Of a stretch of 64,000 bases of DNA, positions 1,527 to 22,452 are shown piece by piece. The position numbers and the translations under genes are program-made. The first letter of the stretch is position 1, and every line of letters starts with the position of its first letter. The DNA lies in NCBI GenBank assembly GCA_040876345.1, contig JBBDPM010000004.1:14980-78979 (forward strand). The letters run 5' to 3'. Source of the DNA: Candidatus Woykebacteria bacterium (GTDB lineage: Bacteria > Patescibacteriota > Microgenomatia > Woykebacterales > RBG-16-39-9b). Below the pieces are notes generated by a model. The model saw only the letters and a program-made list of their open reading frames with translations. It was not told the origin of the DNA and searched no databases.

Positions 1527-2138
1527 TTATTCTCCACTCTCAATTCTTCGTCTGCGTTCATCGAGGGTTTCGCCGTCATACATCCAGTAATCAGTGCCTG
1601 CAACATTATAAGTAACCCCGAGAATTTTTTGAGCGGATGTTGAAAGACTTGTCACTTCACCACTATACTCAATTGATTTTCCTGAATTAAGATTTACGAC
1701 TTTAGCTTTTTTAGACTCGTCACGGCTGAAATAAATTTCAGAACCTAACGGAATGTTTGCCAATTCAAAATTAAACCTTCCACGCCGCTCAAGCGCTTCC
1801 TCGTGCGCCTCACGGTCTTCCTTAGATTCAATTAAATCTTTTTTAGGAGTAATATTTTCAACCTCTGCCAATTTTAAAGCCGCGACCACACGTTCCGGTG
1901 CAATTTGAAAGAATTCCCGACGTGGGTTCACACGGTTGTTATCAAAGGCATCGTGAAGTTGGTGTTCAACGAATTGAGAATTTTTTACAGTGCAAGCATA
2001 GAAAACTATAAAAGGTAACGGTACGCTAGTTGATGCACTTAATTCTCGAACGCGTTGTTCAAGGTTGTTATTTGTTTTCCCAATCTTCACATAACCAGGC
2101 ATCGCTTCATTAGTCAGGATATAAATAATCTCATTCAT
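1527..2138 (-). CDS. GIY-YIG nuclease superfamily protein (T5orf172/MUG113-like N-terminus, DUF4357-like C-terminus)
   Basis: N-terminus IYILTNEAMPGYVKIGKT...RV.EL resembles the T5orf172 GIY-YIG-like domain. First gene of a tightly packed minus-strand operon with the MTase and DUF262 genes. Confidence 0.6.
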   Translation of the reverse strand: MNEIIYILTNEAMPGYVKIGKTNNNLEQRVRELSASTSVPLPFIVFYACTVKNSQFVEHQLHDAFDNNRVNPRREFFQIAPERVVAALKLAEVENITPKKDLIESKEDREAHEEALERRGRFNFELANIPLGSEIYFSRDESKKAKVVNLNSGKSIEYSGEVTSLSTSAQKILGVTYNVAGTDYWMYDGETLDERRRRIESGE

Positions 2139-2270: not shown

Positions 2271-2569
2271 ATTGAATTAAGGGCGGAAAACCCAAATCTT
2301 CAATATTGACCGAGGCAATTTAATTTTGGAAGTATAGAAATAAGGGGAAAGTATGTTGGTTTACTGCGAAAAGCAAGTTAGGCTAATTAATCAGGAGAGT
2401 TTTATCTTTGGATTATTGTAGAAGAAAATTCGTACTATGTGAAATTGACATTACTTGACAAAGTTGTTAATATATATTTTGGATGAGTGATAAGTCCGAT
2501 ACAGGTTGTTCTTAGTGTTCCCATTCATCTGTTTGGCTAAGCTAGGACAAAACAAGCCTGTAAGGCAAC

Positions 2570-3225
2570 TCATCCTTTTAAGTATAAATCCTCAAACTTT
2601 ACTTTCTCCTTAAAAGTTTCTAACCACTCTGTATCTCTTCTCTCATATTTTTGAAAGACTCCCCAGCAAAACATATCGGCAACCTGCAGCCCAGCACTTT
2701 GTTTCGAATCCCAATGATACATATCAAGAGTTACTTTGGGATCTAATCTACCTTGAATTTGAGAGCGGATATAAAAATTAAACTCATCAATCTCGGGTTT
2801 ACTTTTGGACCTATCAATAATAAGCTCGACCCTGTTTACATGGTTCTTTTCAAAAGGAATTTTGTCGATAACTTGTCTTGCAATAAAATTGTAAACTCTG
2901 GGTTTATCTTTAGTGAGTCTATCAAAGACCCTCTTCTTATTGAGAGTTATTGCATAAATCTCAAATTTAACTTTACTTAATTGATTGTAGAAGTACTGCT
3001 TAACTTCTAAAGTTGTATCTTTTCCTTTTAACTCTTCAACAATTCTTCTGCGGTGCCTTTTGGGGTTTAGTTTTCTACGCAGGGTAACCTTTACCCCTTT
3101 TGTTAATTTTCGATTGTCTTCTATCCCACTCACAGCCAAAATAGAAATCGTGAAGAATTTTGAAGGTTTTTTGTTGACAAAGTCAAACCCTAAATCACCA
3201 CTTTCGTCTAAGTATAAATACCACA
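2570..3225 (-). CDS. DUF3800 family protein
   Basis: MWYLYLDESGDLGF at the N-terminus and LQVADMFCWG near the C-terminus are the DUF3800 hallmarks. The ORF-track start at 3246/3247 is a TTG; the ATG at 3225 (MWYLYLDESG) is the more likely start. Confidence 0.7.
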
Positions 3226-3233
3226 TAGTTCCG

Positions 3234-3300
3234 TTTGATTTTATCAAAAAAAGCTTGAATTAAACAGGAGAACTTTATCTTTAGATTGTTATAGCAAAAA
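3234..3300. repeat. Copy B of the ~66 bp direct repeat
   Basis: Matches 2204..2270. Lies immediately upstream of, and overlapping, the 5' end of the DUF3800 gene on the minus strand. Confidence 0.85.
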
Positions 3301-3320
3301 ATACGTGATCATAAAACTGC

Positions 3321-3434: not shown

Positions 3435-3767
3435 ATGAAAAAACTTATTGTATTACAGTCATTATTTGTAACCTCTCTGATTGTTGCCGCTCCGGCGTTT
3501 GCACAGAGCGCAGATGTGTCTAAAATCTCGAACTTTATCCAAAACATAATTACAATCTTAGTTACTCTCTCAGGATTTGTGGCAACAGGCTTTTTCGTCT
3601 GGGGAGGATTCAGCTACATTACCAGTACCGGAAACCCTGAATCACTGGATAGATCAAAAAAGACGATCTTCTATTCAGCAATCGGTTTGGCAATTGTACT
3701 TGGAGCATTTGTTATCAGTAATATTGTCACTCAGGTTGCAACTGGCGCGTTTGGCACAGGTAACTAA
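3435..3767 (+). CDS. Small secreted two-TM pilin-like protein (VirB2/TrbC-like topology)
   Basis: Start MKKLIVLQSL at 3435 with RBS AAAGGGGGTGAAGGC. Signal peptide ending AFA-QS, then a hydrophobic segment, GGFSYITSTGNPESL, and a second hydrophobic segment. Paralogous to the N-terminus of the next gene. Confidence 0.45.
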   Translation: MKKLIVLQSLFVTSLIVAAPAFAQSADVSKISNFIQNIITILVTLSGFVATGFFVWGGFSYITSTGNPESLDRSKKTIFYSAIGLAIVLGAFVISNIVTQVATGAFGTGN

Positions 3768-3792
3768 GGCAACTCTCTTAAGCCTAAATGTT

Positions 3793-5082
3793 ATGAGAAT
3801 GTTAACTTTTTTTGGCGCCGTGGCCTTATTTCTAATATCGACTACTTCGGCATATGCCGCGAGTAACACTGAAATTGCCAATTTTACCAACCAAACCCTT
3901 TCTGTCTTAATTATTATTGCTTCTTTGGCCTGTACTTTTTTCTTAATCAAGGGCGGTTATGCCTATATAACTTCAACTGGAAAACCCTATTCCCTTGAGA
4001 ACGCTAAAACCACAATTAGAAACGCACTTATTGGTTTTGTAGTTGTTCTGGGAGCTGGAGTAATTTCTTCCCTTTTAAATAATGCCTTTACCACACCAAC
4101 ATCCGGTCTAAATCCAAGTCAACTTAGTCTGACTCCAATCGTGCCTTCAACTCCAACCGGCGGTTTAACGCAAATACTACTTGATGCCGTATCCGGTTTT
4201 CTACAAAATATTGTTCAAAGTGCAACCAAGCCATTAACTGACGGGATCGTTTCCTTTCTGACTACAACACCGTCTCTGGTTTCAAACTCGGTCATTTTTA
4301 ACTTTTGGTTGGTCGTAGTCGGCATTACCGATTCGCTCTTTGCGCTGGTAATTGCCCTTTTAGGTTTCCACTTGATGAGTGCTTCAACTTTTGGGTTTGG
4401 TGAAATAGAGTTTAAACATTTACTCCCAAGAGTGGGCCTGGCCTTTTTACTAGCCAATACCTCAATCTTTCTGGCTGACTGGGTCGTTCAAAGCTGTAAT
4501 GTACTGGTCTCGGCGGTCCTGCATGCAACCGGGGGTATAAACAACGCTCTGGTAACAAATGCATTTGATCCGACTGCACTCTCAACCGGTACAACTCCGC
4601 TTATTATGCTGATTTTTATGATCCTGTTTGTAATTTTAGCAATAGTCCTGCTGCTTTTTTACGTCAGCCGGCTGATTTTTATTGCCTTAGGTGCAGTCCT
4701 CGCACCTCTTATCTTTCTTTTATGGGCAGTTCCAAAATTTACCGACTTTGCCGAAATTTCGATGAAAACCTACATCTTCACCGTATTTACGATTTTTGTT
4801 CATGTCGTAGTTATTCAACTTTCAACTGCATTTTTAACCCTGCCCGGACAAGTCGGAACAAATTCTCTGATTTCAATACTAGTTGGAATTGGGCTTTTGT
4901 TTACTCTTTTAAAAACTCCTTCAATCATGATGCAGTTGGTTTTCTACACTGCCGGTAATAGCTTGATTAAAAAAGTTGGCGGCCAAATTATGAACGTCAT
5001 GACCACGGATAAAAATGCGCCAGGAACAGTCGAGGAAACTGGTAGAGCTGTTTCTACCCCGAGAAAGGTGGTCAAGGCGTGA
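3793..5082 (+). CDS. VirB6/TrbL-like polytopic membrane protein with N-terminal pilin-like domain
   Basis: Start MRMLTFFGAV at 3793; the ORF-track extension back to 3577 overlaps the pilin gene. The N-terminal ~100 aa (signal peptide AYA-AS, GGYAYITSTGKPYSL) are homologous to the 3435..3767 product. This is followed by a Thr/Pro linker and at least 6 TM helices. Confidence 0.5.
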   Translation: MRMLTFFGAVALFLISTTSAYAASNTEIANFTNQTLSVLIIIASLACTFFLIKGGYAYITSTGKPYSLENAKTTIRNALIGFVVVLGAGVISSLLNNAFTTPTSGLNPSQLSLTPIVPSTPTGGLTQILLDAVSGFLQNIVQSATKPLTDGIVSFLTTTPSLVSNSVIFNFWLVVVGITDSLFALVIALLGFHLMSASTFGFGEIEFKHLLPRVGLAFLLANTSIFLADWVVQSCNVLVSAVLHATGGINNALVTNAFDPTALSTGTTPLIMLIFMILFVILAIVLLLFYVSRLIFIALGAVLAPLIFLLWAVPKFTDFAEISMKTYIFTVFTIFVHVVVIQLSTAFLTLPGQVGTNSLISILVGIGLLFTLLKTPSIMMQLVFYTAGNSLIKKVGGQIMNVMTTDKNAPGTVEETGRAVSTPRKVVKA

Positions 5083-5597
5083 GAACTCAAGTAATTCCAG
5101 CCCAAATCACCACAGTTGAGGATAAAATTGCCGGAAGTCTGAATTTAACCCAAATAATTCTTTTGATCTTTCCAGCTTTCTGGGCAACTATTGTTTATTC
5201 CTTATTTATCCCGAGACTTCAGCTTTCCTTATATAAATTACCACTGGTTTTGATTGTTTTGATCCTTTGTCTTGCTCTTTCAGTTCGAATTAAAGGCAGG
5301 GTGGTAATTAACTGGCTAGTAACAATTTTTAGATATAACCTGCGTCCGAAATACTATGTATTTGATAAGAACGATAGCTTTGCCAGAACACTGGATTTGC
5401 CTAACTTTAAAATGAGACAAAAATCCCAAATCAAGAAAACTATTACAATAGATGAAACCGAGAAAATTGCCGCCCCGGTAACAATTGGCAATTTAGTAAA
5501 ACTGGAAGGATTATTTACAAATCCTAAATACAGCTTTTCATTTAAATCAGGCCGAAAAGGAGGCTTAGATGTTGCTTTTAAACAAGAACAAAAATAG
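5079..5597 (+). CDS. PrgI/VirB3-like small membrane protein of Gram-positive T4SS
   Basis: TVEDKIAGSLNLTQIILLIFPAF... with two TM helices. Lies immediately upstream of VirB4, as in pCF10-type loci. Assignment from memory of the PrgI family pattern. Confidence 0.4.
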   Translation: MRTQVIPAQITTVEDKIAGSLNLTQIILLIFPAFWATIVYSLFIPRLQLSLYKLPLVLIVLILCLALSVRIKGRVVINWLVTIFRYNLRPKYYVFDKNDSFARTLDLPNFKMRQKSQIKKTITIDETEKIAAPVTIGNLVKLEGLFTNPKYSFSFKSGRKGGLDVAFKQEQK

Positions 5598-6189
5598 GGT
5601 CAGCTCAAGGCGCCAAATTCAGATCAAAGAGGTCAAAAACGGCACTTTAGTTCTGCCAGACAATGAATACAGATTAATTATTGAAACCTCCTCAATAAAC
5701 TTCGAGCTTAAAAGTGAGGAGGAGCAGGATATTTTAATTGACAATTTCCAAAACTTTCTTAACTCGCTTCCCTGTGAGCTTCAAGTTCTGGTTCGGGTTC
5801 GTGAAGTCGATATCGACCGTTATTTGGAGGAAATCGGTAAGAGCAAAGCGACTGAGCGCGAGAAGGTTTATCGAGATCAAATCAAAAACTACTGTAGTTT
5901 TATTAAAAACTTGGTGGCCGGCAATAAAATTTTATCACGGCGTTTTTACGTGGTTATCCCTTATAAGAATTCTGACAAAAACAGAGAGTTTGCACTAATT
6001 GAGGAACAAATTAACTTGCAGAAAGATATTATCCTGAGAGGCCTGGAGAAGCTAGGAATGAAAGCCAGGGTTTTGGACAGCTTAGAGCTTCTCGACCTGT
6101 TCTACAGCTTCTACAGCCCTGCACAGGCCAAAACTCAGGAGCTTAAAGGCCACACCATCGAAGCCCTGCTGGAGAATCAATATGTTTAA
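5569..6189 (+). CDS. VirB4/TrbE-like N-terminal domain protein (split from the ATPase)
   Basis: RBS AAAGGAGG precedes the ATG at 5569. 206 aa. Ends within ATGTTTAA, overlapping the start of the next ORF, which is in the +1 frame. Confidence 0.55.
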   Translation: MLLLNKNKNRVSSRRQIQIKEVKNGTLVLPDNEYRLIIETSSINFELKSEEEQDILIDNFQNFLNSLPCELQVLVRVREVDIDRYLEEIGKSKATEREKVYRDQIKNYCSFIKNLVAGNKILSRRFYVVIPYKNSDKNREFALIEEQINLQKDIILRGLEKLGMKARVLDSLELLDLFYSFYSPAQAKTQELKGHTIEALLENQYV

Positions 6190-8032
6190 TACTCTTGAAA
6201 AGCTAAATGAAATATCAGCACCTTATCTTGAGAAGCTCAAGAAAGTTAACCGCCGTAAGCGAACTTCCAAGAAAGAACAGGTTAAAAGATCATTTCAATT
6301 TAACTTTGGGGAGCAAGATCAAATTGATTTAATTTCTTACTCCGGTCTTGAAGAAAACAGCACTTACCTTCAGGTTGATAATAAATTTGTTCGAACACTT
6401 TTTATTTCCGGCTTTCCTTATGTAGCCTCAACCGGCTGGCTAAACATGCTGATTAATTTCAATCACAACATTGATATTTCTTATCACATTGAACAGGTAG
6501 ATCCCATTTATGCCCTGCCTAAACTCAACCGGAAAATTACTGAACTTGAATCAACTAAACGAGCCATGCTCAAAGACGGCAAAGTCATAGGTTCGGAAAT
6601 AACTGATCCGCTCAAATCAGCCATAGAGCTTAAAGACAAAATTCAAAGAGGTCAGGAAAAACTCTTCCAAGTCTCAATTTATATGACCATCTCAGCTGAC
6701 AGCTTAGTTGAGCTAAATAAAACAACCACAATTTTGGAAACTGTTATGTCGACCCGACTTTTTTATATCAAAACCGCCACCTTTCAACAGTTAGAGGGAT
6801 TGCAATCCACATTGCCCCGAGCAGAAAACATCTTAAACCAAAGACGCAATCTGGACAGCTCTTCGGCGGCCTTAACTTTTCCCTTTGTTTCCTCAGAACT
6901 CGTGCAGGAGTCCGGAATACTTTATGGAATCAATAAATCGAATAATTCACTCGTAATTATTGATAGGTTCTCGCTAAATAACGCTAACAGTATTGTCTTT
7001 GCCCAATCCGGAAGTGGTAAAAGTTACACCGCTAAAGTGGAAATTCTCAGACAACTGATGCAAGGAACAAAAGTCATTGTAATTGATCCGGAACGTGAAT
7101 ATAAACAATTAGCGGCGTCAGTAAACGGAACCTATATCAAGTTATCAGCCAAATCCATAGAGAAAATAAACCCTTTTGACTTTTCTTTAAGTTCTTATGG
7201 TGCCGAAAACGATTTAGCGGAGCATATTCAGGATTTAACGGAAATTATTTCTCTCATCGTCGGGGGCTTAAATTCAGAGGAAAAAGCCATTGTTGATAAA
7301 GCAATCATCCAAACCTACAAACAACAAGGTTTCTCACTGAATTACACATATATTCCAAAAGAGAATAAAAGTACTCGAGGTCGAAAGCCAAAAGATAGAA
7401 CTTACCCGCTACTGAAAGACTTTTACCAAGTCTTAAAAGAAATGCGACAAAAAGACCTTTGTGATCGTTTGGAAAAGTTTGTCAACGGGTCACTCTCTTC
7501 GGTCTTTGATTCCCAGACTAATATTGAACTTAATAATAGGCTAGTTGTCTTTGACATCAAAGACTTAAATGAATCTCTGCGAGAAATAATGATGTTAGCG
7601 GTTGCAAACTTTGTTAATTCGCAAGTTAAATCAAGCCCGCAGAAACAAATTCTAGTAATTGATGAGGGCTGGTTACTCCTGGAACATGAAGAGAGCGCCA
7701 GATTCGTTTCGGCACTTGTGAGGCGAGCCAGAAAATATTACTTGGGGGTAACGATTATTTCCCAACAGGCAAATGATTTTCTAAACAGTGAATATGGTCG
7801 GGCGATTGCGTCCCAGTCGTCGCTTAGAATCTTAATGAGGCAAGACACAACCACGATTAAAAAGGTGGCTGAAGAGTTTAAATTAAGCGAGTATGAAGAA
7901 CAGTTTCTTTTAACCTGTGATCGTGGAGAGGCACTGATAATTTCCGATCAGAACCACGTTGCCCTAAAAGTTGTTGCCTCAGACAAGGAACATCCTCTCC
8001 TAACTACTGACCCCAGAGAGATCTACATTTAA
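6182..8032 (+). CDS. VirB4/TrbE/CagE-family T4SS ATPase (C-terminal ATPase part)
   Basis: Walker A in FAQSGSGKSYTAK and Walker B in ILVIDEGW; 616 aa. Confidence 0.85.
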   Translation: MFNTLEKLNEISAPYLEKLKKVNRRKRTSKKEQVKRSFQFNFGEQDQIDLISYSGLEENSTYLQVDNKFVRTLFISGFPYVASTGWLNMLINFNHNIDISYHIEQVDPIYALPKLNRKITELESTKRAMLKDGKVIGSEITDPLKSAIELKDKIQRGQEKLFQVSIYMTISADSLVELNKTTTILETVMSTRLFYIKTATFQQLEGLQSTLPRAENILNQRRNLDSSSAALTFPFVSSELVQESGILYGINKSNNSLVIIDRFSLNNANSIVFAQSGSGKSYTAKVEILRQLMQGTKVIVIDPEREYKQLAASVNGTYIKLSAKSIEKINPFDFSLSSYGAENDLAEHIQDLTEIISLIVGGLNSEEKAIVDKAIIQTYKQQGFSLNYTYIPKENKSTRGRKPKDRTYPLLKDFYQVLKEMRQKDLCDRLEKFVNGSLSSVFDSQTNIELNNRLVVFDIKDLNESLREIMMLAVANFVNSQVKSSPQKQILVIDEGWLLLEHEESARFVSALVRRARKYYLGVTIISQQANDFLNSEYGRAIASQSSLRILMRQDTTTIKKVAEEFKLSEYEEQFLLTCDRGEALIISDQNHVALKVVASDKEHPLLTTDPREIYI

Positions 8033-8036
8033 TCCA

Positions 8037-8669
8037 GTGTCTCCAAATCTTTCCGCGATTGCAGCAATTTGGTCTTTCCGTCGAGAACTAAAATTTGTTT
8101 TCTTCGCCTTTCTAATTACCTTACTTATTCCCGTGCTTGCCGTCATTTTAGTTGCCAATATCGGCTTGAGTGTAGTTTCCAATGCGCTGGCGACAATAAA
8201 CCTGCAGAACAACACTGTCGAAATCCATGATCCGAGAACCGGACAAATAGTCCAGGAGCTTAAAATAACCGCTGTCTGGCCGGTACACGGGATTGTGACC
8301 CTGGAATTCGGCGAAAGCAACTTTCCTTTCCAGGTTTTTCATACCGGAATAGACATAGCCAGTCCTACGAGACAAATTGGCGATCCAGTGACACCTTTTA
8401 TGGAAGGAACGGTAACTTTTGCCGGAGAAATTCCCCTGGGACTTGGAAAACACGTCATAATTGATCACGGAAATAATATTACTTCCTATTACGGTCACTT
8501 AAGTGCCATTTATGTAGTAAAGGGACAAAAAGTAAAACCGGGCGACATAATTGGGGCGGAAGGAGAAACCGGCTGGGCAACTGGTCCACACGTGCATTTT
8601 CAAATTAATGTCTATGGAATCCCAGTTAACCCAAGAACTTTTTTACAAGGCAACCCTTCTTTAAGGTGA
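8037..8669 (+). CDS. M23 family metallopeptidase (LytM-like) with N-terminal TM anchor
   Basis: HTGIDIA, GHLS and GPHVHFQ motifs. GTG start at 8037. Confidence 0.8.
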   Translation: MSPNLSAIAAIWSFRRELKFVFFAFLITLLIPVLAVILVANIGLSVVSNALATINLQNNTVEIHDPRTGQIVQELKITAVWPVHGIVTLEFGESNFPFQVFHTGIDIASPTRQIGDPVTPFMEGTVTFAGEIPLGLGKHVIIDHGNNITSYYGHLSAIYVVKGQKVKPGDIIGAEGETGWATGPHVHFQINVYGIPVNPRTFLQGNPSLR

Positions 8670-8708
8670 AATACAAACTATCTCTAAAGATTGTATAATG
8701 AGGAAAAT

Positions 8709-8915
8709 ATGAACTCTCAAGAACAGCTAGGTAAAAACTTAAAAAAAGCTAGACAAAAGTCTGGAATGACCCAGGCCACTGTGGCTGAAAAGGCCGAGGT
8801 ACATGTTAATTATTATGCTAGAATTGAAAGAGGTGAGGTAAACCCGTCGATTGAAATCTTGGAGAACATAGCCAAAGCTTTGAAAGTAAACTCTTCTGAA
8901 ATCTTACCTTTTTAA
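8709..8915 (+). CDS. XRE-family helix-turn-helix transcriptional regulator
   Basis: GMTQATVAEKAEVHVNYYARIERGE is an HTH_3 pattern. ATG at 8709 with RBS TGAGGA. Confidence 0.7.
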   Translation: MNSQEQLGKNLKKARQKSGMTQATVAEKAEVHVNYYARIERGEVNPSIEILENIAKALKVNSSEILPF

Positions 8916-9352
8916 ATAAATCTCTTGAGTTTCAGAAAATCAAACATTTGATTTACAGTTTCAGATCCTTCTATCCTTCTCATTATTTCGCGGCTGTGGT
9001 TTTGGGAAAAAATGTTAAGACTGCCTTCCCAGAGAACAGTTCTATCAAGTATGGCCAGCTTTCGATGGTGATTGCCCAGGCAAATTAGCACTTGAACTCC
9101 TACGACTTCAAATGCTCGTATTCCCGTCTCGGATTGTTGTTCGAGTTTGATCTCATGCTCCTTTGGATTTCTCGTAATGACGAACACCCTTACATTTTTG
9201 TTTAGCAATTTTTTAAGAATTGGTAAGAATAATTTCATTCTTTCGTTGGTTATATAAGGACTTTCAATAATTACTTCCTTTTGACAACTGACTAGGTCTT
9301 TTATAAAAGCTTGGTAAAAAGTTGTCTCATCAAAGAGTTGGGAGGAGAACAT
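8912..9352 (-). CDS. PLD-family (single HKD) nuclease, Nuc-like
   Basis: Perfect HxK(x4)D(x6)GSxN motif in HHRKLAILDRTVLWEGSLN. Start overlaps the stop of the recombinase gene (TAATG). Confidence 0.75.
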   Translation of the reverse strand: MFSSQLFDETTFYQAFIKDLVSCQKEVIIESPYITNERMKLFLPILKKLLNKNVRVFVITRNPKEHEIKLEQQSETGIRAFEVVGVQVLICLGNHHRKLAILDRTVLWEGSLNIFSQNHSREIMRRIEGSETVNQMFDFLKLKRFI

Positions 9353-10992
9353 TACTCTTCCTCCTCTTCCTTATGGTAAACTTCCATTAACTGACTCAGC
9401 CAGGCTAAAAGCGGTTCAAAAGAAAGTGCGGTTGGGTCACCATATGCTTTTTGTTCAGACAAAAAAGCTGGTTGGAGGGTATCGTAAGGTTGTTTTAGCC
9501 TCACATCCACAACTGTTTTGTTATCAATAACAAATTCCTCGATAAATGCATTGATAAACATTCTCTTAGTTGTGGGATCTGCGATTTTGTAGAGATCGTA
9601 ACAATTATTAAGTATACTTAGTGTTTTATCTAAAGCCCGAAGTCTCATCTTCTCGTCCTCTGTGGTTGATTGTCTATGTTGATTTAGAACAGCCGTTTGT
9701 CGATCGTACTCAACAATCTTTACTTCATAAATATCTTCCGGTATTCTCTTTTCCAAATGTTCCTCGACTAACCTTAACCGCTTTTCCAAAAGAGCCTTAT
9801 ACGCTTTATCAGCTGTTTCTTTTGTTAACCCGGACTGTTCTTTTACCTCCTGCTCAATTTGCTTAACCCGTATTGAAACTAAATTGTACATTGCCTTAGG
9901 AAGTTGAAGTCTCTTGAATATATTCTCAACCTTATCCTCGAGAATTGATGCTGACACCATTGGTTGGTCACAAAGCTCTCGACCGTTTCTAATTGAGCCA
10001 ATACATCTGTGATAGAGCCACTGACCTCTTTGTAAATCTCTTGTTAAACCACTTCCACACCTGAAACATTTTAACTTACTTGCCGTTAAGACAACATCTG
10101 CCGTATTAGTAGTTCTGGTCTTGGGTTTCTGTCTAAGTTTAAGAACCTCCTGAATTCTGTGCCAGGTTGGATCATTCCACATTGGTGGGTGCTCTCCTTT
10201 TGACTCCACAACCTCGTTCGTTTTTCGATCTTTAAATGTAACAAGCCCTGCGTAGAACTTACTTGAAAGTATTCTCCTCAAACCCTCAGTTCTAATAGGC
10301 CGCCCGTTGTGAGTTAGGTATCCTGAGTTGTTAAGCTCCTTGCATATTTGGTGAAGGGTAAACTGATCAGTAGAATAAAGTTTGCCTGCGTATTTAAGTG
10401 CATCAAATCTTTGTGGATCAATCTCAATCCAACTCTTTCTTCTCCCGTCCTCTAGCAGAATTCGTTTATTCAAGTATCCTTGCGGTGCAACAAACATCCA
10501 CTTGCCATCCTTTGTTCTCTGTTTCATACCTTTTACTACTTCTTGAGCTAGATTTCTTATATACCATTCATTAATCAAACTCATTTGTCTTCGAGCAAAC
10601 CAACCAGCAGGATTTGTGGGGTCAATGGGTTCTGAAGCACTAACAATAGACACCCCAATTTTATTCAAGTCTTTTTCATACTTCTGAAATTCAAAATCGT
10701 TTCTGAAAGCTCGATCGAACTTGTGAATGATTATATATTTGAAGAATCCTTGTTTAGCGTCATTAAGCAATTGGTTAAACTCTTCTCGGTTCTCAGCCAG
10801 CTTCCCACTTTCTAAATCGACATACTCTCTGTAGATTGGCAATTTTGGTGGTAGGATAAGGTTTTGGCCAAACTGAATGGCCTTGTAACAATTGTCGAGC
10901 TGAGCTGGTATCGAGACTTCTTTCTTTTGTCTTTCTTCATCACTCATTCGACAATAAATAGCTACTTTCTCTTCTGGTTCAATCTTTTTCAT
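9352..10992 (-). CDS. Large serine recombinase (integrase)
   Basis: N-terminal resolvase domain with VAIYCRMSDEE (catalytic Ser), then a recombinase domain and a Cys-rich zinc ribbon (CFRCGSGL...HRC). Start MKKIEPEE at 10992, preceded by GGAAGTGA. Confidence 0.85.
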   Translation of the reverse strand: MKKIEPEEKVAIYCRMSDEERQKKEVSIPAQLDNCYKAIQFGQNLILPPKLPIYREYVDLESGKLAENREEFNQLLNDAKQGFFKYIIIHKFDRAFRNDFEFQKYEKDLNKIGVSIVSASEPIDPTNPAGWFARRQMSLINEWYIRNLAQEVVKGMKQRTKDGKWMFVAPQGYLNKRILLEDGRRKSWIEIDPQRFDALKYAGKLYSTDQFTLHQICKELNNSGYLTHNGRPIRTEGLRRILSSKFYAGLVTFKDRKTNEVVESKGEHPPMWNDPTWHRIQEVLKLRQKPKTRTTNTADVVLTASKLKCFRCGSGLTRDLQRGQWLYHRCIGSIRNGRELCDQPMVSASILEDKVENIFKRLQLPKAMYNLVSIRVKQIEQEVKEQSGLTKETADKAYKALLEKRLRLVEEHLEKRIPEDIYEVKIVEYDRQTAVLNQHRQSTTEDEKMRLRALDKTLSILNNCYDLYKIADPTTKRMFINAFIEEFVIDNKTVVDVRLKQPYDTLQPAFLSEQKAYGDPTALSFEPLLAWLSQLMEVYHKEEEEE

Positions 10993-11167
10993 TATCACTT
11001 CCATTTTGTTCTGATAAATTTACAGTGTCAACCATACCTGCTTGTTCAGACAAATAGGTTCGGTCCTTATCAAATGCTTGCCAAACTGCCATAGAAAGCT
11101 CTTCAACTCTAAGTTGCCAGATCTTTAAGCATCCTCATTCTGTTCCCCAGTCTCTTTCCTAATAAGT

Positions 11168-11536
11168 TCAAGGTCTAGCATCTTGCCCTTCCTTAAACTT
11201 CGTTTGATAGCCCCATCTTTTTAGAATGCCTTGAAAGTAGATGGCTCTCTTTCGAACAAGACGTCCTTCGGTGGCGGCAAGTTTAGTAAAGCTCAAAGCC
11301 TCGTATAGTTTCTGGGGGTCGTAGTTATTAGCAAGTAGTCGGTAATAACCAAGGCTTCTCTCGTCACTGAGACCTTGAGCGAGAACCTTCGCCACACTTT
11401 CCTCTTCTAAGCCAAAGGAGCTAACCAAGTGGTTGACTTGGTCTGTTACAGTAATACTGTTAACTGTATTTGAATTCCTCTTAAGACTGTTAACAGTTTC
11501 TTCTTTTCCCTTCAAGGTTTCTTTAAGACTTTCCAT
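11168..11536 (-). CDS. Hypothetical protein with DnaD/DDBH2-like C-terminal motif
   Basis: C-terminal AIYFQGILKRW fits the YxxxIxxxW motif of DnaD-like replication proteins, which are common in mobile elements. Confidence 0.35.
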   Translation of the reverse strand: MESLKETLKGKEETVNSLKRNSNTVNSITVTDQVNHLVSSFGLEEESVAKVLAQGLSDERSLGYYRLLANNYDPQKLYEALSFTKLAATEGRLVRKRAIYFQGILKRWGYQTKFKEGQDARP

Positions 11537-11764
11537 AAACTAAAATCTGCCGGCTCAGAGAGTAACCAGCAGATTACGGCCTCCCTGAAATTGCCAACTA
11601 AAAAGCAGCCCTTGGTTCATCGTTAATCTTTAATCATTTGACGAACTTTCGGCTGCTACCTTGAGCAACTGTGGAGACTGGAAAGTCCTACCACCTTATT
11701 TATTTGTTAATCATATTATAACACAAGCAACAAGATTGTGCTGGAATCTCTTTAATTAAACATT

Positions 11765-11841
11765 GGCCTAGCAGCAAATAAGACGTGAAAGCGTCGGAGT
11801 CGTAATGCGGCACATCCCGTTGACTCTGACGCTGCTAGGCC
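11765..11841 (+). other. GC-rich imperfect long hairpin (GGCCTAGCAGC...GCGTCGGAGTC / GACTCTGACGC-TGCTAGGCC) with a duplicated TGCGGCACAT(C/T)C box
   Basis: Complementarity was read directly from the sequence. Lies between the recombinase/DnaD-like genes and a small ORF with strong RBS AAAGGAGG. Confidence 0.4.
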
Positions 11842-11902
11842 GATGACGAGGGGTGTGTCGCACTATTTTGCGGCACATTCACAACCAAAGGAGGTCTAGC
11901 AA

Positions 11903-12127
11903 ATGGGTTACTGGGAAATAATAGGTATATTGTTCTTGATTTCCGTTCTTCTAGCGGGGATCTTGGAAAAGAATTGGAAACCGCTACTTGGTTTGATTGG
12001 AGCAATCATATTTCTAGTCTTATTCTTTCTCTTTGTGGACTGGCTTTCACCTAAACCTGGTGAAACCACACCCGAATCCGATCCAAGTTGTATCGAAATG
12101 CAAGGGCAAACAAGGTTGGGCTGCTAA
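11903..12127 (+). CDS. Small two-TM membrane protein
   Basis: Strong RBS AAAGGAGG 8 nt upstream. 74 aa, hydrophobic. Confidence 0.4.
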   Translation: MGYWEIIGILFLISVLLAGILEKNWKPLLGLIGAIIFLVLFFLFVDWLSPKPGETTPESDPSCIEMQGQTRLGC

Positions 12128-12414
12128 CCAATTTCCTAGCAAATCTTAACAAGTAGGTACTTACTCAACATTTCTCAACAAAATCGATTCTGTGAGCAAA
12201 TAGGCACGCTCAGAAACTTAGAATAGATGTTTAGGGCGATTTCCCCAAATACTGCGCGACTAGGTGAGGCATTTAGATAAAGTAAATTATTTTCCAAAAA
12301 GGGTGGTGCGGTAGGGCACTAGCATTTTGAGGCTGAAGTTTCTCTAAACTCCTAAATACTATTTAGTTATTTTAAGTTTGCCGACAACGAGAATAATTGT
12401 TAGAATAGACTACT

Positions 12415-13386
12415 ATGAGTCAGAATAAGGCAGCACTTACTAACAAACCAAAGAAGCACCACTATGTTTCTCAGTTCTATCTGAGGGGCTTTCTGGATTC
12501 AAATAGTCAATTAAACATCTTTGATAGGTACAACAAAGTCTTTTTGAAACGTACTCCTGGTGGTATTGCTTATAACGAGAACTACTACACTGTCGACACC
12601 AAACAGGAGAAGGGCAGCACTATTCTTGAAGAGACACTCGGGCTAGTTGAAACAAAAGCAAAGCCAGTAATTGACAAGCTAACTCAGCACGGAGCTGTGT
12701 TAACCAAAGAGGAACGTGAGAATCTTGGCCTTTTCCTAGCTCTTCAACAACAAAGGGTGCCTGATAGTGAAAAAGCTAAGCGGGAAATGGCGGAAAAGAC
12801 TTATAAAGCCGTGGCTCAGAAGTTTGCTCATCTTTTGGCGACAAATAATGAGGCCTTTGAAACCACCAAGAAAAAGGTGCCTAAAGTTAAGGGCTCGCCA
12901 GAATTAACGCAAGAAGATTGGCTTGGGCTTGCTACAGGTGAGAAGTTTAAATTGGAAATTGAGGTACCGCACAGTTTTGTAGTTAAGCAGATGTTTGACT
13001 TGGCGCTTGAAGTCGCTCCGCTTATTTGTCAAATGAATTGGAAAGTTCTTTACGCATCGAAGAGTAGGGCTTTCACTACATCAGACAACCCATTCATCTT
13101 AAGTGGTAGTCCTTGGGCTCCAGGTAGAGGTGTGGGGCTTATTACGCCGAGGTCAAGAAAGTTCTTCCCTTTAACAAAGGGCGCTTGTTTGTTTATGGGC
13201 GATCAGCCAACAGCAACACTGGAGTTTGCTAGTGCTACTTCAGATGGGGTTCGTCAAATTAACAGGTTGACTGCACTTAACAGTGATAGATATATAATCT
13301 CTCATAATCAAGATCTGCTGAAGAGAATAGTAAAGATAACGAAAGTCGATACCTTCATAAAAGAGGAACGAGTTCAAGTAGGATAG
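12415..13386 (+). CDS. DUF4238 family protein
   Basis: N-terminal HHYVSQFYLRGF matches the DUF4238 signature (HYVPQFYL.xF), from memory. Own promoter TTGCCG, 17 bp spacer, TAGAAT at about 12374-12402. Confidence 0.55.
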   Translation: MSQNKAALTNKPKKHHYVSQFYLRGFLDSNSQLNIFDRYNKVFLKRTPGGIAYNENYYTVDTKQEKGSTILEETLGLVETKAKPVIDKLTQHGAVLTKEERENLGLFLALQQQRVPDSEKAKREMAEKTYKAVAQKFAHLLATNNEAFETTKKKVPKVKGSPELTQEDWLGLATGEKFKLEIEVPHSFVVKQMFDLALEVAPLICQMNWKVLYASKSRAFTTSDNPFILSGSPWAPGRGVGLITPRSRKFFPLTKGACLFMGDQPTATLEFASATSDGVRQINRLTALNSDRYIISHNQDLLKRIVKITKVDTFIKEERVQVG

Positions 13387-13388
13387 AT

Positions 13389-13976
13389 TTACTCACAAGC
13401 TGTGCCGTCACCATCCCTATCAAGGTCGTAAATATCATAACCTATTACCTGAACCGGGCCTGAGACATAAGCAGGGCCATTTCCAGATCCCCCAGCGCAA
13501 TCAACATCGCTAGCAATTGGAACACAACCAGAATAGTTGGGGTCACAATTTGATTTCTGAGCTAATGGGGCAACATAAGTGCCGTTCGCCACAATCTTTT
13601 TCACAGGTTCAGTAACAATCTTTTCAGAAATCTTTTTGCGCGAAACCTCAACACCACCCTCATAAGTAACCTCGTACTTGATCTCCTTTGTACCATCTCT
13701 TCCTTCCTGAGTTATCCTCGTCTTACCTTTTTCCAGCGTAGTGTCGATAGCTTCCTCAGTTTCAAAGGAAACGTTCTCGGTTTCGGTAATAGTCTTAACT
13801 TCGTTTGTTGGCTTTGATTCTTGAATGGTACTCTCTACTTTGGGAGCTGGTTTCGGTTCAGATGAGGGTGAAACAGCCGCAGCAAACACAGTGCCGCTTA
13901 CTAACGCGGCACCAATAAAGGCAGCCTTACCGGCGAGCGAGAGAGCGGAGAACTGAGATTTAAGTTTGTTCAGCAT
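13389..13976 (-). CDS. Secreted G5-domain protein with C-terminal Excalibur calcium-binding domain
   Basis: Signal peptide. G5-like segment ITQEGRDGTKEIKYEVTYEGG. C-terminal CDPNYSGCVP...DLDRDGDGTACE is the Excalibur DxDxDGxxCE motif. Confidence 0.6.
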   Translation of the reverse strand: MLNKLKSQFSALSLAGKAAFIGAALVSGTVFAAAVSPSSEPKPAPKVESTIQESKPTNEVKTITETENVSFETEEAIDTTLEKGKTRITQEGRDGTKEIKYEVTYEGGVEVSRKKISEKIVTEPVKKIVANGTYVAPLAQKSNCDPNYSGCVPIASDVDCAGGSGNGPAYVSGPVQVIGYDIYDLDRDGDGTACE

Positions 13977-14048
13977 ATTTCACGGCGATTGTACCATATT
14001 TGCTTGATAAAGTAATAAATTGCCTTTTGGGTCTATAATGAACCGGCA

Positions 14049-14444
14049 ATGCAAGAAGAAACTGAAAGCTCAAGTTCTGGGTCTAACCTCTGTGGTGGTC
14101 TATTTTGGGCCGTCGTTATTATAGGTGGTTTGATCTGGTTTGGAAACAAAGTATACAGAAATAACATCGAAAGCGAGAAGAAGCCTTTTTGGAGTGGGAC
14201 TGAAACTGTGCAAGTTTGCAAAGCTCCGTATTACTCCAGCAGCGACTGCTACAAACTACCCGTAACTTTGATTGACGAGGAAAGGGCACAAATTAGATTC
14301 AACAATGGAGGGTATGTTGTTGTCGGCGGCCTAAATTGTTGGAACGCGGCAAAGTTGGATGAGACTCCTCGTTATGTCTTTTGCAGAAGTGAGGATAATG
14401 AGGGAAACCGTTGGGATTTCCTACCGAACTGGGTAAATTATTAA
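14049..14444 (+). CDS. Hypothetical membrane-anchored Cys-containing protein
   Basis: One TM helix and 6 Cys. No recognised domain. Confidence 0.3.
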   Translation: MQEETESSSSGSNLCGGLFWAVVIIGGLIWFGNKVYRNNIESEKKPFWSGTETVQVCKAPYYSSSDCYKLPVTLIDEERAQIRFNNGGYVVVGGLNCWNAAKLDETPRYVFCRSEDNEGNRWDFLPNWVNY

Positions 14445-14480
14445 AATGGTAACTACTAAACAGGCACTTCAACGCGTGCT

Positions 14481-15587
14481 TTACCCCACCTTATCGTAAG
14501 GATCATATTCGACTTCTTCCGTTTCTGCGAAATTAAAGTCCCCAGAATCATCGTCCTTAATACCTAAGTAACCAGCAAAGCCTGTGTCGAGGTTTATTCC
14601 TTTGACAAGAGTAGGAATCTTTTTGAGTATTTCTTGAGAGTACTTCTCAGCATTGCCATTACCTACCACGTGCAGAATGGTTTCTTCCTTGCAAGATTTC
14701 AGCATTTCTTTGATAATTTCATCTCTTGCTTTGTACCCTATTAGATAAACCTCGTCCGCCTTACTAAACAATTCTTTGCCTGCCGCAATAATCTTTTCGT
14801 AGAACCCAGTCACGAACTTGTACTCTTTAATTGTCAACGGGAGAAATATAAGTGGGTAGAAATGTTGGTTGCCAAATCTACTACTAACAAGAGGGTGTAG
14901 TTGGTTTAGGTCGGGGTGATTTACTTCTACAACCTTTGTGTCTGTAACCTGTAAGGGTGGGGCACTAAAAATTAGACTGCTCGCAAGATCATAACGAACT
15001 CTCATATCAAAGCGACCCTCTTCAGATATACCCCGATCGTCCTTTCTCTTTGGTATCAACCAATTAACTGAGCCGTGAGGTTTGAGATAGACGATATTTA
15101 AGTCATTATTAAGGCAATCATCCAATGTCCAAAATTCTGCGCCAAACACCTCACTCAGGGCTTTATCTAGTAATATATCGTAATTGAAGTTTACCAAGCC
15201 AAACTCCTCCTCACTCTTAGCCAGCTTGTTTGCAAACACCTTATAGAGGTTTGTTTCGTCATAAGTGTCGGATACCGCTCTAAGTAGGTTCCATACATAT
15301 AAAGCTATTCTTCCAAAGAGTCTCATCTCTGACTCCTTTTGCCAAGGCTTCTTTAACTTCTGTACGTTAAGCCAACGTTCGGTTAAATAATCTTCCAAAC
15401 TCTCGTAGCCGGAGACATCTTTTGCCAAGGACTCCAAGTCTTTTGTAGATAAACCTACTTCCTTGGCGCGATCAGCGTATTGCGAGTTAAATAAATCGTT
15501 TGTTACTGGAGATTCGGTCACTACAGTATGAACTTGCGATCCTTTTGAAGCTCCAGCGCCGAAAATGTACACTTTCATAGCTGCCAT
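14481..15587 (-). CDS. SIR2-like (SIR2_2 / DHS-like NAD-binding) domain protein
   Basis: VYIFGAGASKGS at the N-terminus and KPHGSVNWL are the SIR2_2 hallmarks seen in defence SIR2 proteins (ThsA, DSR). 368 aa. Confidence 0.6.
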   Translation of the reverse strand: MAAMKVYIFGAGASKGSQVHTVVTESPVTNDLFNSQYADRAKEVGLSTKDLESLAKDVSGYESLEDYLTERWLNVQKLKKPWQKESEMRLFGRIALYVWNLLRAVSDTYDETNLYKVFANKLAKSEEEFGLVNFNYDILLDKALSEVFGAEFWTLDDCLNNDLNIVYLKPHGSVNWLIPKRKDDRGISEEGRFDMRVRYDLASSLIFSAPPLQVTDTKVVEVNHPDLNQLHPLVSSRFGNQHFYPLIFLPLTIKEYKFVTGFYEKIIAAGKELFSKADEVYLIGYKARDEIIKEMLKSCKEETILHVVGNGNAEKYSQEILKKIPTLVKGINLDTGFAGYLGIKDDDSGDFNFAETEEVEYDPYDKVG

Positions 15588-15650
15588 TCTAGCATTTTTG
15601 GCCTAAATTATACTAGTTTTCCAATTAATCTAACCTTATAATCACCATAT

Positions 15651-16514
15651 ATGCCGTTTTACTTGTATGCCTGGATTGCGACTATTTCCTTTGGTTTTGT
15701 AGTAGTTATAGTTAAGTTTGCCAGTAAGTATTCCATTTCAAACCCATGGCTGTTTAATTTTCTTACTCAACTCATACTAACGCTCCTACTGATACCCACT
15801 GCGATTTACTATCGTTCGTTTTTGCCAAGTGAATGGCTGTTCCTGGGCATATCTTCTGTTTTTAACGCTATCTGGGTACTCATGTACGTTTTTAGCCTAT
15901 ACAAACTAGATGTATCTGTATTCACACCTCTTTACAACTTTAGGGTCATATTTGCTGTCCTTTTTGGCTTCTTTCTGTTGGGAGAGACGCTTGCACTTTA
16001 CCAATTAGCTTTGTTTTGTGTGATTATAATCGGAGGGCTTTTTGTAAGTATTGATGAGAAATTAAGCCTAAAATCATTCTTTAATAAATCAATCGGTTTA
16101 GCTATAGTTGCTATGTTGTTTTTGGTCCTAAGTAATATCTACGCTAAGAAAACCTTGGCTGTAAATGATGTTTGGGAGGTAGCGCTTTGGACAAATGTAA
16201 TCACCACGTTATTTCTGATTCCGACAATCCCGAAATTTCGTAAAGATATAGGAAAACTTGGGAAGAAACAAATCCCTCCCTTAGTTCTAATGGGTTTAGC
16301 TTCAGTAATAGGCACAATTTTCGTCAATCTGGCTTATCAGATAAATGTAGGTGTTACAGCGATAATTCTTGCTATACCAACATCTATGATTTTGGCTGTA
16401 GGCATTTCTATCTTTATACCAGGCTTTCTAGAGAAACATACTAACAAAGTCTACGCAATTCGTTTTACTGCAGCGGCTGCTATGATTGTTGCTGCTTTAC
16501 TGATATCATTGTGA
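15651..16514 (+). CDS. DMT-superfamily (EamA-like) transporter
   Basis: About 10 TM helices with two-repeat architecture. Confidence 0.55.
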   Translation: MPFYLYAWIATISFGFVVVIVKFASKYSISNPWLFNFLTQLILTLLLIPTAIYYRSFLPSEWLFLGISSVFNAIWVLMYVFSLYKLDVSVFTPLYNFRVIFAVLFGFFLLGETLALYQLALFCVIIIGGLFVSIDEKLSLKSFFNKSIGLAIVAMLFLVLSNIYAKKTLAVNDVWEVALWTNVITTLFLIPTIPKFRKDIGKLGKKQIPPLVLMGLASVIGTIFVNLAYQINVGVTAIILAIPTSMILAVGISIFIPGFLEKHTNKVYAIRFTAAAAMIVAALLISL

Positions 16515-16576
16515 CCCTGGATTATTCTCTCTAATCAGTGCTATAGGATTTTTGTGTCGAGATTCTGAGACACCCC

Positions 16577-16806
16577 TTTTTATAGGGTCTCATTTGTCTC
16601 ATTTAGCCTCCTGATGAGACAAGACCCTTGCGACTATAATCGTCCTCGATTTAGTCCACGAGGTGGTCGCAAAGCGCGAAGCGATCTACATCTCGCCGCT
16701 TGAAACTCTGCGAGTTATAATCGCAGATTACATCAGCTCTTGTAACACAAGAGTGTTATAGCGACTGAACTGACCGAGACCCCAATGCTTCACCATTGTT
16801 GTTTCC
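16577..16806. repeat. Intergenic repeat family, copy 1 (~230 bp), ends GGGTCTC...GAGACCC
   Basis: 5' block tttttataGGGTCTCATTTGTCTCA, internal ATTTAGCCTC, and 3' block AGCGACTGAACTGACCGAGACCCCAATGCTTCACCA are shared with copy 2. Contains an internal hairpin GGGTCTcattTGTCTCAT...ATGAGACAagaccc. Confidence 0.8.
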
Positions 16807-20694: not shown

Positions 20695-21471
20695 ATGTTT
20701 CCTTTTTCCAAGAAAACCGATTTTGGGTACTTGCGAAAATTCAACCTAATTATGGCTGCCTTGCACGCACTTCAAGGTATCGCCATTTTACTTCTTAGCA
20801 CAGACTTCAAGCTTCCAGTTACCGCTGGATATTTAACCTTTAATGCAGCCACTCAAGCTCTGGAACCGGCTAAAGAAACTTTGTTTGATCTTTCACTTGC
20901 TCCCCTTGTGGCTATCTTTTTCTTTCTTTCAGCTGCGGCTCACTTAACCATTGCCACGCTTTGGAGAAAAGGTTACGAGAATGATTTATCCAAAGGGATG
21001 AACAGAGCCCGTTGGTTTGAATACGCGCTATCAGCAAGTGTGATGATGGTGGCTATTGCTCTTTTAGTTGGAATCTACGAGGTTACCCAGCTGATCATGA
21101 TCTTTGCTTTGGTTGCTTTTATGAACCTGATGGGACTCTTGATGGAAGTATATAACCAAACTACCCAAAAGACTAATTGGCTCTCATTTATAATCGGCAG
21201 TTTTGCCGGGATTGTACCCTGGTTGGTCGTTGGCCTTTACTTCTGGGCCGCAGCGGCCTTTGGAGAAGGAGAGGTACCTACCTTTGTTTACTGGATTTAC
21301 GTATCAATCCTTATTTTCTTCAATTGCTTCGCAATAAATATGTACCTGCAATACAAGAAAGTTGGAAAATGGAGGGACTATATTTTTGGTGAAAAATCTT
21401 ATATAGTTCTGAGCCTGGTTGCAAAATCCGCTCTTGCTTGGCAAGTATTCGCTGGGACACTCCGACCGTAA
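20695..21471 (+). CDS. Heliorhodopsin
   Basis: 7-TM protein. The C-terminal helix EKSYIVLSLVAKSALAWQVF, and also LRKFN, RWFEYALSASVMM and FAGIVPW, match what I recall of heliorhodopsin 48C12, including the Schiff-base Lys in VAKS. Confidence 0.75.
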   Translation: MFPFSKKTDFGYLRKFNLIMAALHALQGIAILLLSTDFKLPVTAGYLTFNAATQALEPAKETLFDLSLAPLVAIFFFLSAAAHLTIATLWRKGYENDLSKGMNRARWFEYALSASVMMVAIALLVGIYEVTQLIMIFALVAFMNLMGLLMEVYNQTTQKTNWLSFIIGSFAGIVPWLVVGLYFWAAAAFGEGEVPTFVYWIYVSILIFFNCFAINMYLQYKKVGKWRDYIFGEKSYIVLSLVAKSALAWQVFAGTLRP

Positions 21472-22303: not shown

Positions 22304-22324
22304 ACCTTAATTTTAGACATTCAC

Positions 22325-22452
22325 TTTTTATACTGTCTCATTTGTCTCACTTCGGTATCCTCGGTGTAAACACTTCGACTTCACTCAGTACAAGCATTTA
22401 GCCTCTAAGCGATTGAACTGACCGAGACCCCAATGCTTCACCAAATTTGTTT
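22325..22452. repeat. Intergenic repeat family, copy 2 (~128 bp)
   Basis: Shares both terminal blocks and the ATTTAGCCTC box with copy 1, in the same orientation. Confidence 0.8.

Follow-up and report, generated by a model that had tools for sequence, protein, structure and literature searches.

A DUF4238 gene and a solo SIR2-like gene beside a conjugative-element-like module in a Woykebacteria genome: two candidate defence genes

Four genes on alternating strands

We analysed a 64,000-nucleotide stretch of DNA from a Candidatus Woykebacteria bacterium (contig JBBDPM010000004.1 of assembly GCA_040876345.1), a member of the candidate phyla radiation (CPR). Within this stretch, hereafter the window, with positions counted from its first letter, a DUF4238 gene and a SIR2-like gene lie beside a large serine recombinase gene. 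A preliminary description of the window, drawn from its letters, had proposed both as candidate anti-phage genes, each a single-gene unit with its own promoter, separated by genes for a secreted G5/Excalibur protein and a small Cys-rich membrane protein. All four open reading frames (ORFs) were found where that description had placed them (Table 1), and the DUF4238 and SIR2-like genes proved to be real, intact and stand-alone. The four ORFs lie in turn on the plus, minus, plus and minus strands and are followed by a plus-strand gene for an EamA transporter, with intergenic gaps of 2, 72, 36 and 63 nt. Because the strands alternate, each of the four genes is necessarily its own transcription unit, which bears out the first half of the proposal. 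The second half, concerning the promoters, gained little from a consensus scan of the region, which returned 9 promoter-like sites against 10.1 expected in shuffled sequences. One of these sites, TG-extended, lies 9 nt upstream of the DUF4238 ATG. A perfect TATAAT box, found by direct reading of the sequence, stands 19 nt before the first SIR2-like ATG, in the 63-nt divergent spacer common to the SIR2-like and EamA genes; Table 1 gives both, as consensus matches only. The true start of the SIR2-like gene is probably a second ATG at 15578, giving a protein of 365 aa, which we prefer because MKV is where the homologs start, as does the NCBI record (365 aa). The SIR2-like ORF is 100% identical to a hypothetical protein recorded for a Candidatus Woykebacteria MAG (metagenome-assembled genome), and the DUF4238 ORF also matches a record of that organism.

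Both intervening genes are present as described. The first, convergent with the DUF4238 gene, encodes a secreted or anchored protein with an N-terminal hydrophobic anchor; its G5 domain is a solid match and its Excalibur domain a marginal one, it has no PADLOC match, and nothing we found ties it to either candidate gene. The second, convergent with the SIR2-like gene, encodes a membrane protein for which we found no family match in Pfam or PADLOC.

The DUF4238 protein and its family

The DUF4238 protein matches Pfam PF14022 over the full length of the profile (positions 1-281 of 281; E 4.5e-47, 161.2 bits against a cut-off of 27), carries the signature HHYVSQFYLRGF at residues 15-26 and shows no further domain within its 323 residues. 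The gene stands alone, with a 1.4-kb spacer that holds two small ORFs between it and the recombinase gene upstream, and a convergent gene downstream. At E<=1e-3 the family comprises 4014 representative clusters, and the best 150 representatives are nearly all single-domain proteins of ~300-320 aa. Across the alignment, H16, F26, E72, R114, P116, W209, D224, P226 and N283 are invariant, and H15, Y22, L23, D37, Y58, E79, F220, G241, K249 and P252 complete the set of residues that are invariant or nearly so. The AF2 model has a pLDDT of 93.1, and we found no solved relative by sequence, nor any by fold among the structures of the PDB (best E 0.46). The presence of conserved polar residues (H15, H16, E72, R114, D224, N283 and K249) on a confidently modelled fold suggests that the protein may be an enzyme in which these residues would serve catalysis.

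Among predicted viral protein structures only one matches, from Stenotrophomonas phage Smp131 (E 4.5e-11), and the protein concerned is uncharacterised. A tblastn search of phage genomes recovered the DUF4238 gene of Peduovirus pro483, which lies between a gpA-type nickase gene and the portal gene and is 26.5% identical over 76% of the window protein; the residues common to the two are HHxxSQxYLxGF, E, RxP, NW and SDNP. A single DUF4238 protein from the P2-prophage hotspot between gpA and portal confers strong T7 resistance on E. coli, acting alone (Rousset et al. 2022, PMC9122126), and a 2024 survey counts Rst_DUF4238 among the systems that could not be assigned to any known domain family. 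The earlier statement that DUF4238 is of unknown function is thus right for its chemistry but wrong for its role, given the validated anti-T7 member. The PADLOC model DUF4238-Pers gives a weak, partial match to the window protein (E 9.8e-7; 26.5 bits as a raw hidden Markov model (HMM) score; residues 13-230 on profile positions 5-221 of 309). By its sequence, the window protein belongs to a known defence family as a new and distant member and, if function follows family, is most likely a one-protein factor against phages or other mobile genetic elements (MGEs).

The SIR2-like protein, its relatives and their neighbourhoods

The preliminary description had assigned the second gene to the SIR2_2 family. 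Its Pfam score for that family (PF13289) lies under the gathering score (22.8 against 24.5 bits; E 1e-4, residues 132-176 only), no other Pfam family matches at E<=0.01, and the PADLOC SIR2 and Aga_SIR2 models give weak matches on both halves of the protein, residues 240-312 included. A database search recovered 54 homologs, most of them 333-378 aa long and nearly all without names, the named ones coming from Levybacteria and Kerfeldbacteria. Only five of the 54 carry a precomputed PF13289 match, which places the family at the edge of the SIR2_2 model. The FGAGAS and HGSVNW motifs on which the label had been based are present, and in an alignment of 31 sequences, whose members are 23-44% identical to the window protein, the invariant residues are G10-A-G-A-S14, N135-Y-D137, K169, H171-G-S-V-N-W176, G284 and D289. 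From the known sirtuin fold, we take G10-S14 to be the nicotinamide adenine dinucleotide (NAD) loop and N135/D137 and H171 to be the catalytic Asn/Asp and His.

With an alignment-based AF2 model of the protein (pLDDT 90.8, pTM 0.89), a Foldseek search of the PDB gave 57 matches at E<=1e-3, and 50 of the 50 among the matches listed are SIR2-family structures. The best are the SIR2 subunits of the anti-phage SIR2-HerA system (8sub, 8su9, 8w9l and 8wld; E 4e-7 to 1e-5), followed by human SIRT2/3 (E 5e-5 to 1e-3) and then by Avs5 SIR2-STAND, ThsA and SPARSA; SIRT1 is also among those listed. A profile search of PDB sequences aligned NYD...HGSVNW and a later GYxxxD motif with PsSIR2 (8w9l). The SIR2 assignment therefore stands on the fold and the invariant catalytic motifs, not on the Pfam score.

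The protein contains just two cysteines (C158 and C299), neither of them conserved, and hence no CobB-type zinc ribbon; with the SIR2-HerA subunits matching ahead of SIRT2/3, it does not group with the housekeeping sirtuins. The C-terminal ~110 aa, singled out earlier as a possible separate domain, turn out to be the second half of the Rossmann fold: in the model, residues 243-340 form beta-alpha-beta units that complete the sheet (strands 243-247, 279-283, 304-308 and 328-333). The whole 345-aa core is SIR2 fold, and we found no appended sensor domain in the protein. A conserved helical insert at residues ~35-125 carries E65, L68, T69, W72, Y97 and W99. As modelled, the protein is a bare SIR2 domain with this sizeable insert, and its conserved motifs make it likely to be an NAD-consuming enzyme. 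The window copy also bears an acidic, disordered C-terminal tail of 24 residues (residues ~345-368, encoded at 14481-14555; KDDDSGDFNFAETEEVEYDPYDKVG); most homologs end ~20-25 residues earlier, and none shares the tail.

The structural comparison also bears on a different reading, in which the protein is a non-defence NAD-dependent deacylase or ADP-ribosyltransferase, the helical insert binds a cellular substrate and the proximity to a recombinase is incidental. We regard this as possible though doubtful. Classical sirtuins are the next-best structural matches, and the conserved helical module (E65, W72, Y97 and W99) occupies the place at which sirtuins bind an acyl-lysine substrate. Against this reading, the protein, with its two non-conserved cysteines, lacks a zinc-binding module, and the best matches are defence NADases rather than deacylases.

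The distribution of the family speaks to the same question. In 185,579 species-representative genomes, a scan seeded with motifs recovered 64 SIR2-like loci, a lower bound since exact motifs were needed. About 16 of the 64 are close full-length relatives, spread over at least eight CPR lineages (Levyi-, Kerfeld-, Parcu-, Sacchari-, Roizman-, Gottesman-, Peri- and Uhrbacteria); outside the CPR, close relatives occur in MAGs labelled Gammaproteobacteria, Zixibacteria and Chloroflexi. Their identity to the window protein is flat, at 31-40%, save for the Uhrbacteria copy (26%). The remaining loci, found in Acidobacteria, Nitrospira, Actinobacteria and archaea, encode more distant relatives, again as solo ORFs of ~340-400 aa. 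So rare and patchy a spread at flat identity indicates a rare, horizontally moving accessory gene rather than a housekeeping one, and does not fit a housekeeping regulator. In a Zixibacteria MAG (locus L015, 9926-10945), the SIR2-like frame is split into ORFs of 142 and 187 aa, which may reflect a pseudogene or an assembly error; an apparently split copy suggests a dispensable gene and so also speaks against the deacylase or ADP-ribosyltransferase reading. The case for a new SIR2 configuration in the window is a weak one, given that these 64 species-representative genomes, from many phyla, encode SIR2_2-like proteins of ~340-400 aa that stand alone.

We found no conserved partner gene for the family: in an all-against-all BLAST of neighbours (19 close loci and the window; 36 distant loci), no family occurs in more than three loci. 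The earlier account of a short protein with neither a sensor domain nor a known sensor partner thus holds. The genes just upstream are mutually unrelated (DnaK, YraN, a glyoxalase-like protein and others without a family), and the idea that they might be variable 'sensor' genes was dropped, as no pattern emerged among them. Locus L006 also has an adjacent EamA gene, but its product is barely related to the EamA protein of the window, and we set the adjacency down to coincidence.

These neighbourhoods also bear on whether the two genes are linked. On one reading, the DUF4238 and SIR2-like genes, possibly with the two genes between them, would make up one multi-gene defence system, and we find this very hard to credit. 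In its favour, a span of 3.2 kb holds both genes. Genes for secreted proteins with an Excalibur or SNase domain also occur beside or near SIR2-like genes in three other loci (L001, 9054-9776; L012, 9178-9927; L017, 6830-7096), which with the one at 13389-13976 in the window makes four of ~21 contexts, a recurrence that may be chance, since CPR genomes are reported to be rich in genes for secreted nucleases. Against a joint system, the four genes alternate in strand and so form no operon, a search with the DUF4238 profile (hmmsearch) found no DUF4238 gene in ~70 other SIR2-like loci, and no neighbour family recurs in more than three. The Cys-rich membrane protein, considered as a partner, has no homolog in L001 or beside other SIR2-like genes, and DUF4238 suffices alone in E. 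coli (PMC9122126). The two genes occupy opposite strands, two unrelated genes separate them, and they do not co-occur in the ~70 other loci; with DUF4238 acting alone as well, we conclude that the pair does not form a joint system.

Of 21 close-family contexts, the window included, at least seven have hallmarks of mobile elements no more than 10 kb from the SIR2-like gene. Serine recombinases account for four of these, in the window and in L001 (with a PrimPol-helicase), L017 and L026, the distance in the latter three being 1.5-7 kb; such proximity in 4 of 21 contexts counts against the deacylase or ADP-ribosyltransferase reading. The other contexts hold a tyrosine integrase, a transposase and HicAB (L008), a Gp49/helix-turn-helix (HTH) toxin-antitoxin pair with DUF3800 (L009), and a solo Cas1 of 530 aa with an HTH_17 excisionase-like gene (L010). 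By a rough reckoning, seven of 21 would exceed the expectation for a random gene, taking a genome of ~1 Mb that holds one or two recombinases. On the L010 metagenome contig (626-9065), which may represent a casposon-like or other mobile context, the SIR2-like gene begins 27 nt after a gene for a 1093-aa protein without a Pfam match. Many homologs have housekeeping genes around them and neither an MGE nor a defence marker within view, as the deacylase or ADP-ribosyltransferase reading would have it.

Genomic context, interpretation and known systems

The window falls into two parts, an accessory left part from 1 to ~22 kb and a core right part that begins with the ATP synthase operon at 23.8 kb and holds iPGM, UvrABC, H+-PPase, PPDK and Lon. 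The features of the left part are collected in Table 1.

Table 1. Features of the accessory left part of the window, in map order
Feature	Position	Strand	Basis or remark
M.EcoRI-type methyltransferase	332-1606	-	PADLOC MTase_II, E 9.7e-105
T5orf172 / GIY-YIG-like ORF	1527-2138	-	full-length match to candidate defence family PDC-S57, E 7.8e-68
DUF3800 protein	2570-3247	-	
Type IV secretion / conjugation module	3577-8669	+	Pfam, NCBIfam: T4SS pilin-TrbL, PrgI-like, TraC N-terminal part, VirB4-like ATPase, M23 peptidase
HTH regulator			after the secretion module and before the PLD nuclease in gene order
PLD-family nuclease	8912-9352		
Large serine recombinase (550 aa)	9352-11004	-	Pfam Resolvase 4e-21, Recombinase 2.9e-11, Zn_ribbon_recom 6.5e-6; NCBIfam XisF/CcrB-like
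Promoter-like site TTGCCG-17-TAGAAT with TG	12378-12406	+	consensus match only
DUF4238 gene	12415-13386	+	323 aa
G5 + Excalibur protein, secreted or anchored (195 aa)	13389-13976	-	G5 E 2e-21; Excalibur 20.4 bits, under cut-off 22
Small membrane protein	14049-14444	+	131 aa, one transmembrane helix, 5 Cys
SIR2-like gene	14481-15587	-	368 aa from first ATG
TATAAT box	15607-15612	-	consensus only

The segment 3577-11004 is a module resembling an integrative and conjugative element (ICE) in a CPR chromosome. Its VirB4-like ATPase (6182-8032) matches NCBIfam conju_CD1110 with an E-value of 3.7e-107, and the large serine recombinase is probably the recombinase of this ICE-like element, which lies to its left. 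The preliminary description had placed the two genes in an accessory stretch next to a recombinase, and this is upheld, with the addition that the recombinase probably belongs to an element bearing a type IV secretion system (T4SS). The recombinase lies 1.4 kb from the DUF4238 gene and 3.5 kb from the SIR2-like gene.

This arrangement raises the question of whether the ICE-like element carries one or both genes as cargo, serving its addiction or stabilisation (as a toxin-like NADase) or the exclusion of plasmids and other ICEs rather than anti-phage immunity. The T4SS module, HTH regulator, PLD nuclease and large serine recombinase stand immediately to the left, the methyltransferase, PDC-S57 and DUF3800 genes are likewise on the left arm, and other SIR2-like genes lie near serine recombinases (L001, L017 and L026) or a solo Cas1 (L010). 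Large serine recombinases, however, usually sit at the end of an element, which would put both genes outside it; no attachment-site (att) repeats or boundary were found, there is no conserved antitoxin-like partner, and most family members lie far from any element. On balance we consider cargo of this kind improbable.

Several searches addressed the ends of the island. A repeat search detected no att-like repeat pair around 11-16 kb, there are no Rfam matches in the same interval, and GC content and skew of the window show no island signal. The Abhydrolase_9 gene has a single metagenome relative, which shows no synteny and gave no help with the island ends, and the closest DUF4238 homologs are on contigs of just 1.5-7 kb.

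Four side observations concern the left part. The T5orf172/PDC-S57 ORF directly precedes and overlaps the M.EcoRI-type methyltransferase gene (332-2138, minus strand), and the pair may form a restriction-modification-like unit. A DUF3800-V RNA motif (Rfam; 2480-2576, plus strand; 64.5 bits, gathering score 37.4) adjoins the DUF3800 gene, and 67-nt direct repeats at 2204-2270 and 3235-3301 (93% identical) flank the cassette that RNA and gene form. A heliorhodopsin gene lies at 20695-21471 on the plus strand (Pfam PF18761, E 1.9e-99), inside the accessory-looking stretch. Two intergenic blocks of 29 and 45 nt (90-91% identical) occur in the same order at 16576-16804 and 22324-22452, 5.7 kb apart, and flank the Abhydrolase_9, heliorhodopsin and SDR genes.

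The preliminary description had also inferred a defence island. In the window itself, MTase_II, PDC-S57, DUF3800, the PLD nuclease and DUF4238 all lie within 15 kb, and the first four of these, with the T4SS, within 12 kb, which would fit that idea; in a small sample of 12 other loci, the neighbours of the SIR2-like gene are mostly housekeeping genes. PADLOC matches among the neighbour ORFs are generic kinases and helicases (PD-T4-6 models, matched by protein kinases, mad6 and MkoA). In the same window, PADLOC HMMs score UvrA as mad3 (E 4.6e-104) and mad8, UvrB as PbeA and DinG, and Lon as BrxL (35776-41032 and 56895-59264), and a published study reports PD-T4-6 in almost all of the S. thermophilus strains that it lists (PMC11514479). 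Because UvrA, UvrB and Lon score in this way and PD-T4-6 is so frequent among those strains, raw PADLOC HMM matches are unreliable as defence calls.

Taking these results together, we favour a reading of the two genes as unrelated, self-contained accessory genes, the DUF4238 gene encoding a one-protein anti-phage or anti-MGE factor and the SIR2-like gene an NAD+-cleaving enzyme for which abortive infection is the leading guess; we give this reading an even chance. Both genes would sit in a variable stretch of at least 20 kb beside, or possibly inside, the ICE-like element of a Woykebacteria chromosome. The SIR2-like protein most likely cleaves NAD+ or transfers ADP-ribose, chemistry suggested by homology, because the catalytic residues are all invariant and the proteins closest to it in structure are NADases. 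The SIR2 proteins of SIR2-HerA, ThsA, DSR2 and SPARSA are NAD+ glycohydrolases that are switched on by oligomerisation. By analogy with them, one may speculate that the protein is held inactive until a trigger acts on the helical insert (~35-125) or on its oligomeric state. That the SIR2-like gene is a defence gene is plausible. A bolder version, which we advance tentatively and think on the whole unlikely, holds that the ~345-aa family is a self-contained, single-protein NAD+-depleting immune effector that is spreading horizontally in ultra-small CPR/Patescibacteria and a few other phyla. Either the helical insert would do its sensing, or oligomerisation alone would trigger it.

A number of observations weigh against the reading that we favour. 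Among 107 neighbour ORFs in 12 SIR2-like loci, the recognisable ones are mostly housekeeping genes, the neighbours seen across the family include DnaK, RecA, IMPDH, ribosomal protein S6, SSB, ProRS and DnaE, and a defence-island association of the family is not established by these 12 loci. The SIR2-like gene was absent from phage and plasmid collections, viral contigs gave only two distant matches, and in the literature searched we found no solo SIR2 of this size shown to defend. The TM-scores to known SIR2 structures are modest (0.4-0.5). A constitutive NADase with neither an inhibitor nor a sensor would be toxic, which makes the regulatory step of the proposed mechanism purely inferential. 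The repeat and synteny searches do not define the island boundaries. For DUF4238, the experimental support for defence comes only from a member of a type to which the window protein is only 26% identical, and the window protein's PADLOC match is, as noted, weak and partial.

Both genes are annotation-level candidates, useful rather than surprising. Should the SIR2-like protein work as an NADase on its own, a regulated NAD-depletion effector would be seen to need very little, and the protein would offer a handle on immunity in CPR bacteria, for which we found nothing on SIR2 defence in the literature searched. As a single-protein immune effector, it would be the minimal SIR2 defence module and among the first defence effectors characterised for CPR bacteria, which are reported to rely for the most part on salvaged cofactors. 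The family may escape automated tools, since its scores lie under the Pfam threshold. The DUF4238 gene is a CPR-borne, distant addition to a validated family that has no relative of solved fold, and its list of invariant residues and confident model could guide mutagenesis.

The DUF4238 gene shares with Rst_DUF4238 the full-length Pfam family and the architecture of a stand-alone gene for a single-domain protein of ~310-320 aa. It differs in that the window protein is 26% identical to the pro483 hotspot type over 76% of its length, with a weak and partial match to the PADLOC model, and in its setting, a CPR chromosome beside an ICE-like element instead of a P2 prophage; phage resistance has been shown for the E. 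coli P2-hotspot member only.

With the classical sirtuin deacylases (CobB, SIRT2/3), the SIR2-like protein shares the Rossmann core and the GAGxS, N..D and HG motifs. Their Cys4 zinc ribbon is absent from it, however, its helical insert is different and larger, and whereas they are near-universal, its family is rare and patchy. The SIR2 fold and the catalytic Asn and His also unite it with Thoeris ThsA, DSR1/DSR2, SPARSA SIR2-APAZ and Avs5 SIR2-STAND, of which ThsA, SPARSA and Avs5 are weaker structural matches (E 2e-4 to 5e-4). These systems sense through SLOG and ThsB (Thoeris), a long C-terminal repeat domain (DSR), a prokaryotic Argonaute, pAgo (SPARSA), or a STAND NTPase (Avs5), whereas the window protein has none of these: no TIR or SLOG match was found in it or among the ORFs from 8037 to 16514 of the window that were scanned, and no pAgo or STAND gene lies near it.

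The system that it most resembles is SIR2-HerA (Nezha / Gao_Her_SIR2). Despite this resemblance, the window has no HerA gene, the immediate neighbours are those for the EamA transporter and the Cys-rich membrane protein, sequence identity is 13-16% with TM-scores of 0.4-0.5, and ~55 loci reveal no conserved partner. We considered the VirB4-like ATPase as a HerA counterpart, since it is the sole FtsK/HerA-type ATPase nearby, and rejected it because it is a T4SS gene 6.4 kb away in another operon. The SIR2 subunit itself is nonetheless the best structural match, with alignments across the whole protein, a similar length of ~350-400 aa, the NYD...HGS(V/I)NW and GYxxxD motifs in both, and a zinc ribbon in neither. 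The SIR2-like gene of the window thus falls in a clade of solo SIR2-fold proteins that has drawn little notice and scores just under the Pfam threshold.

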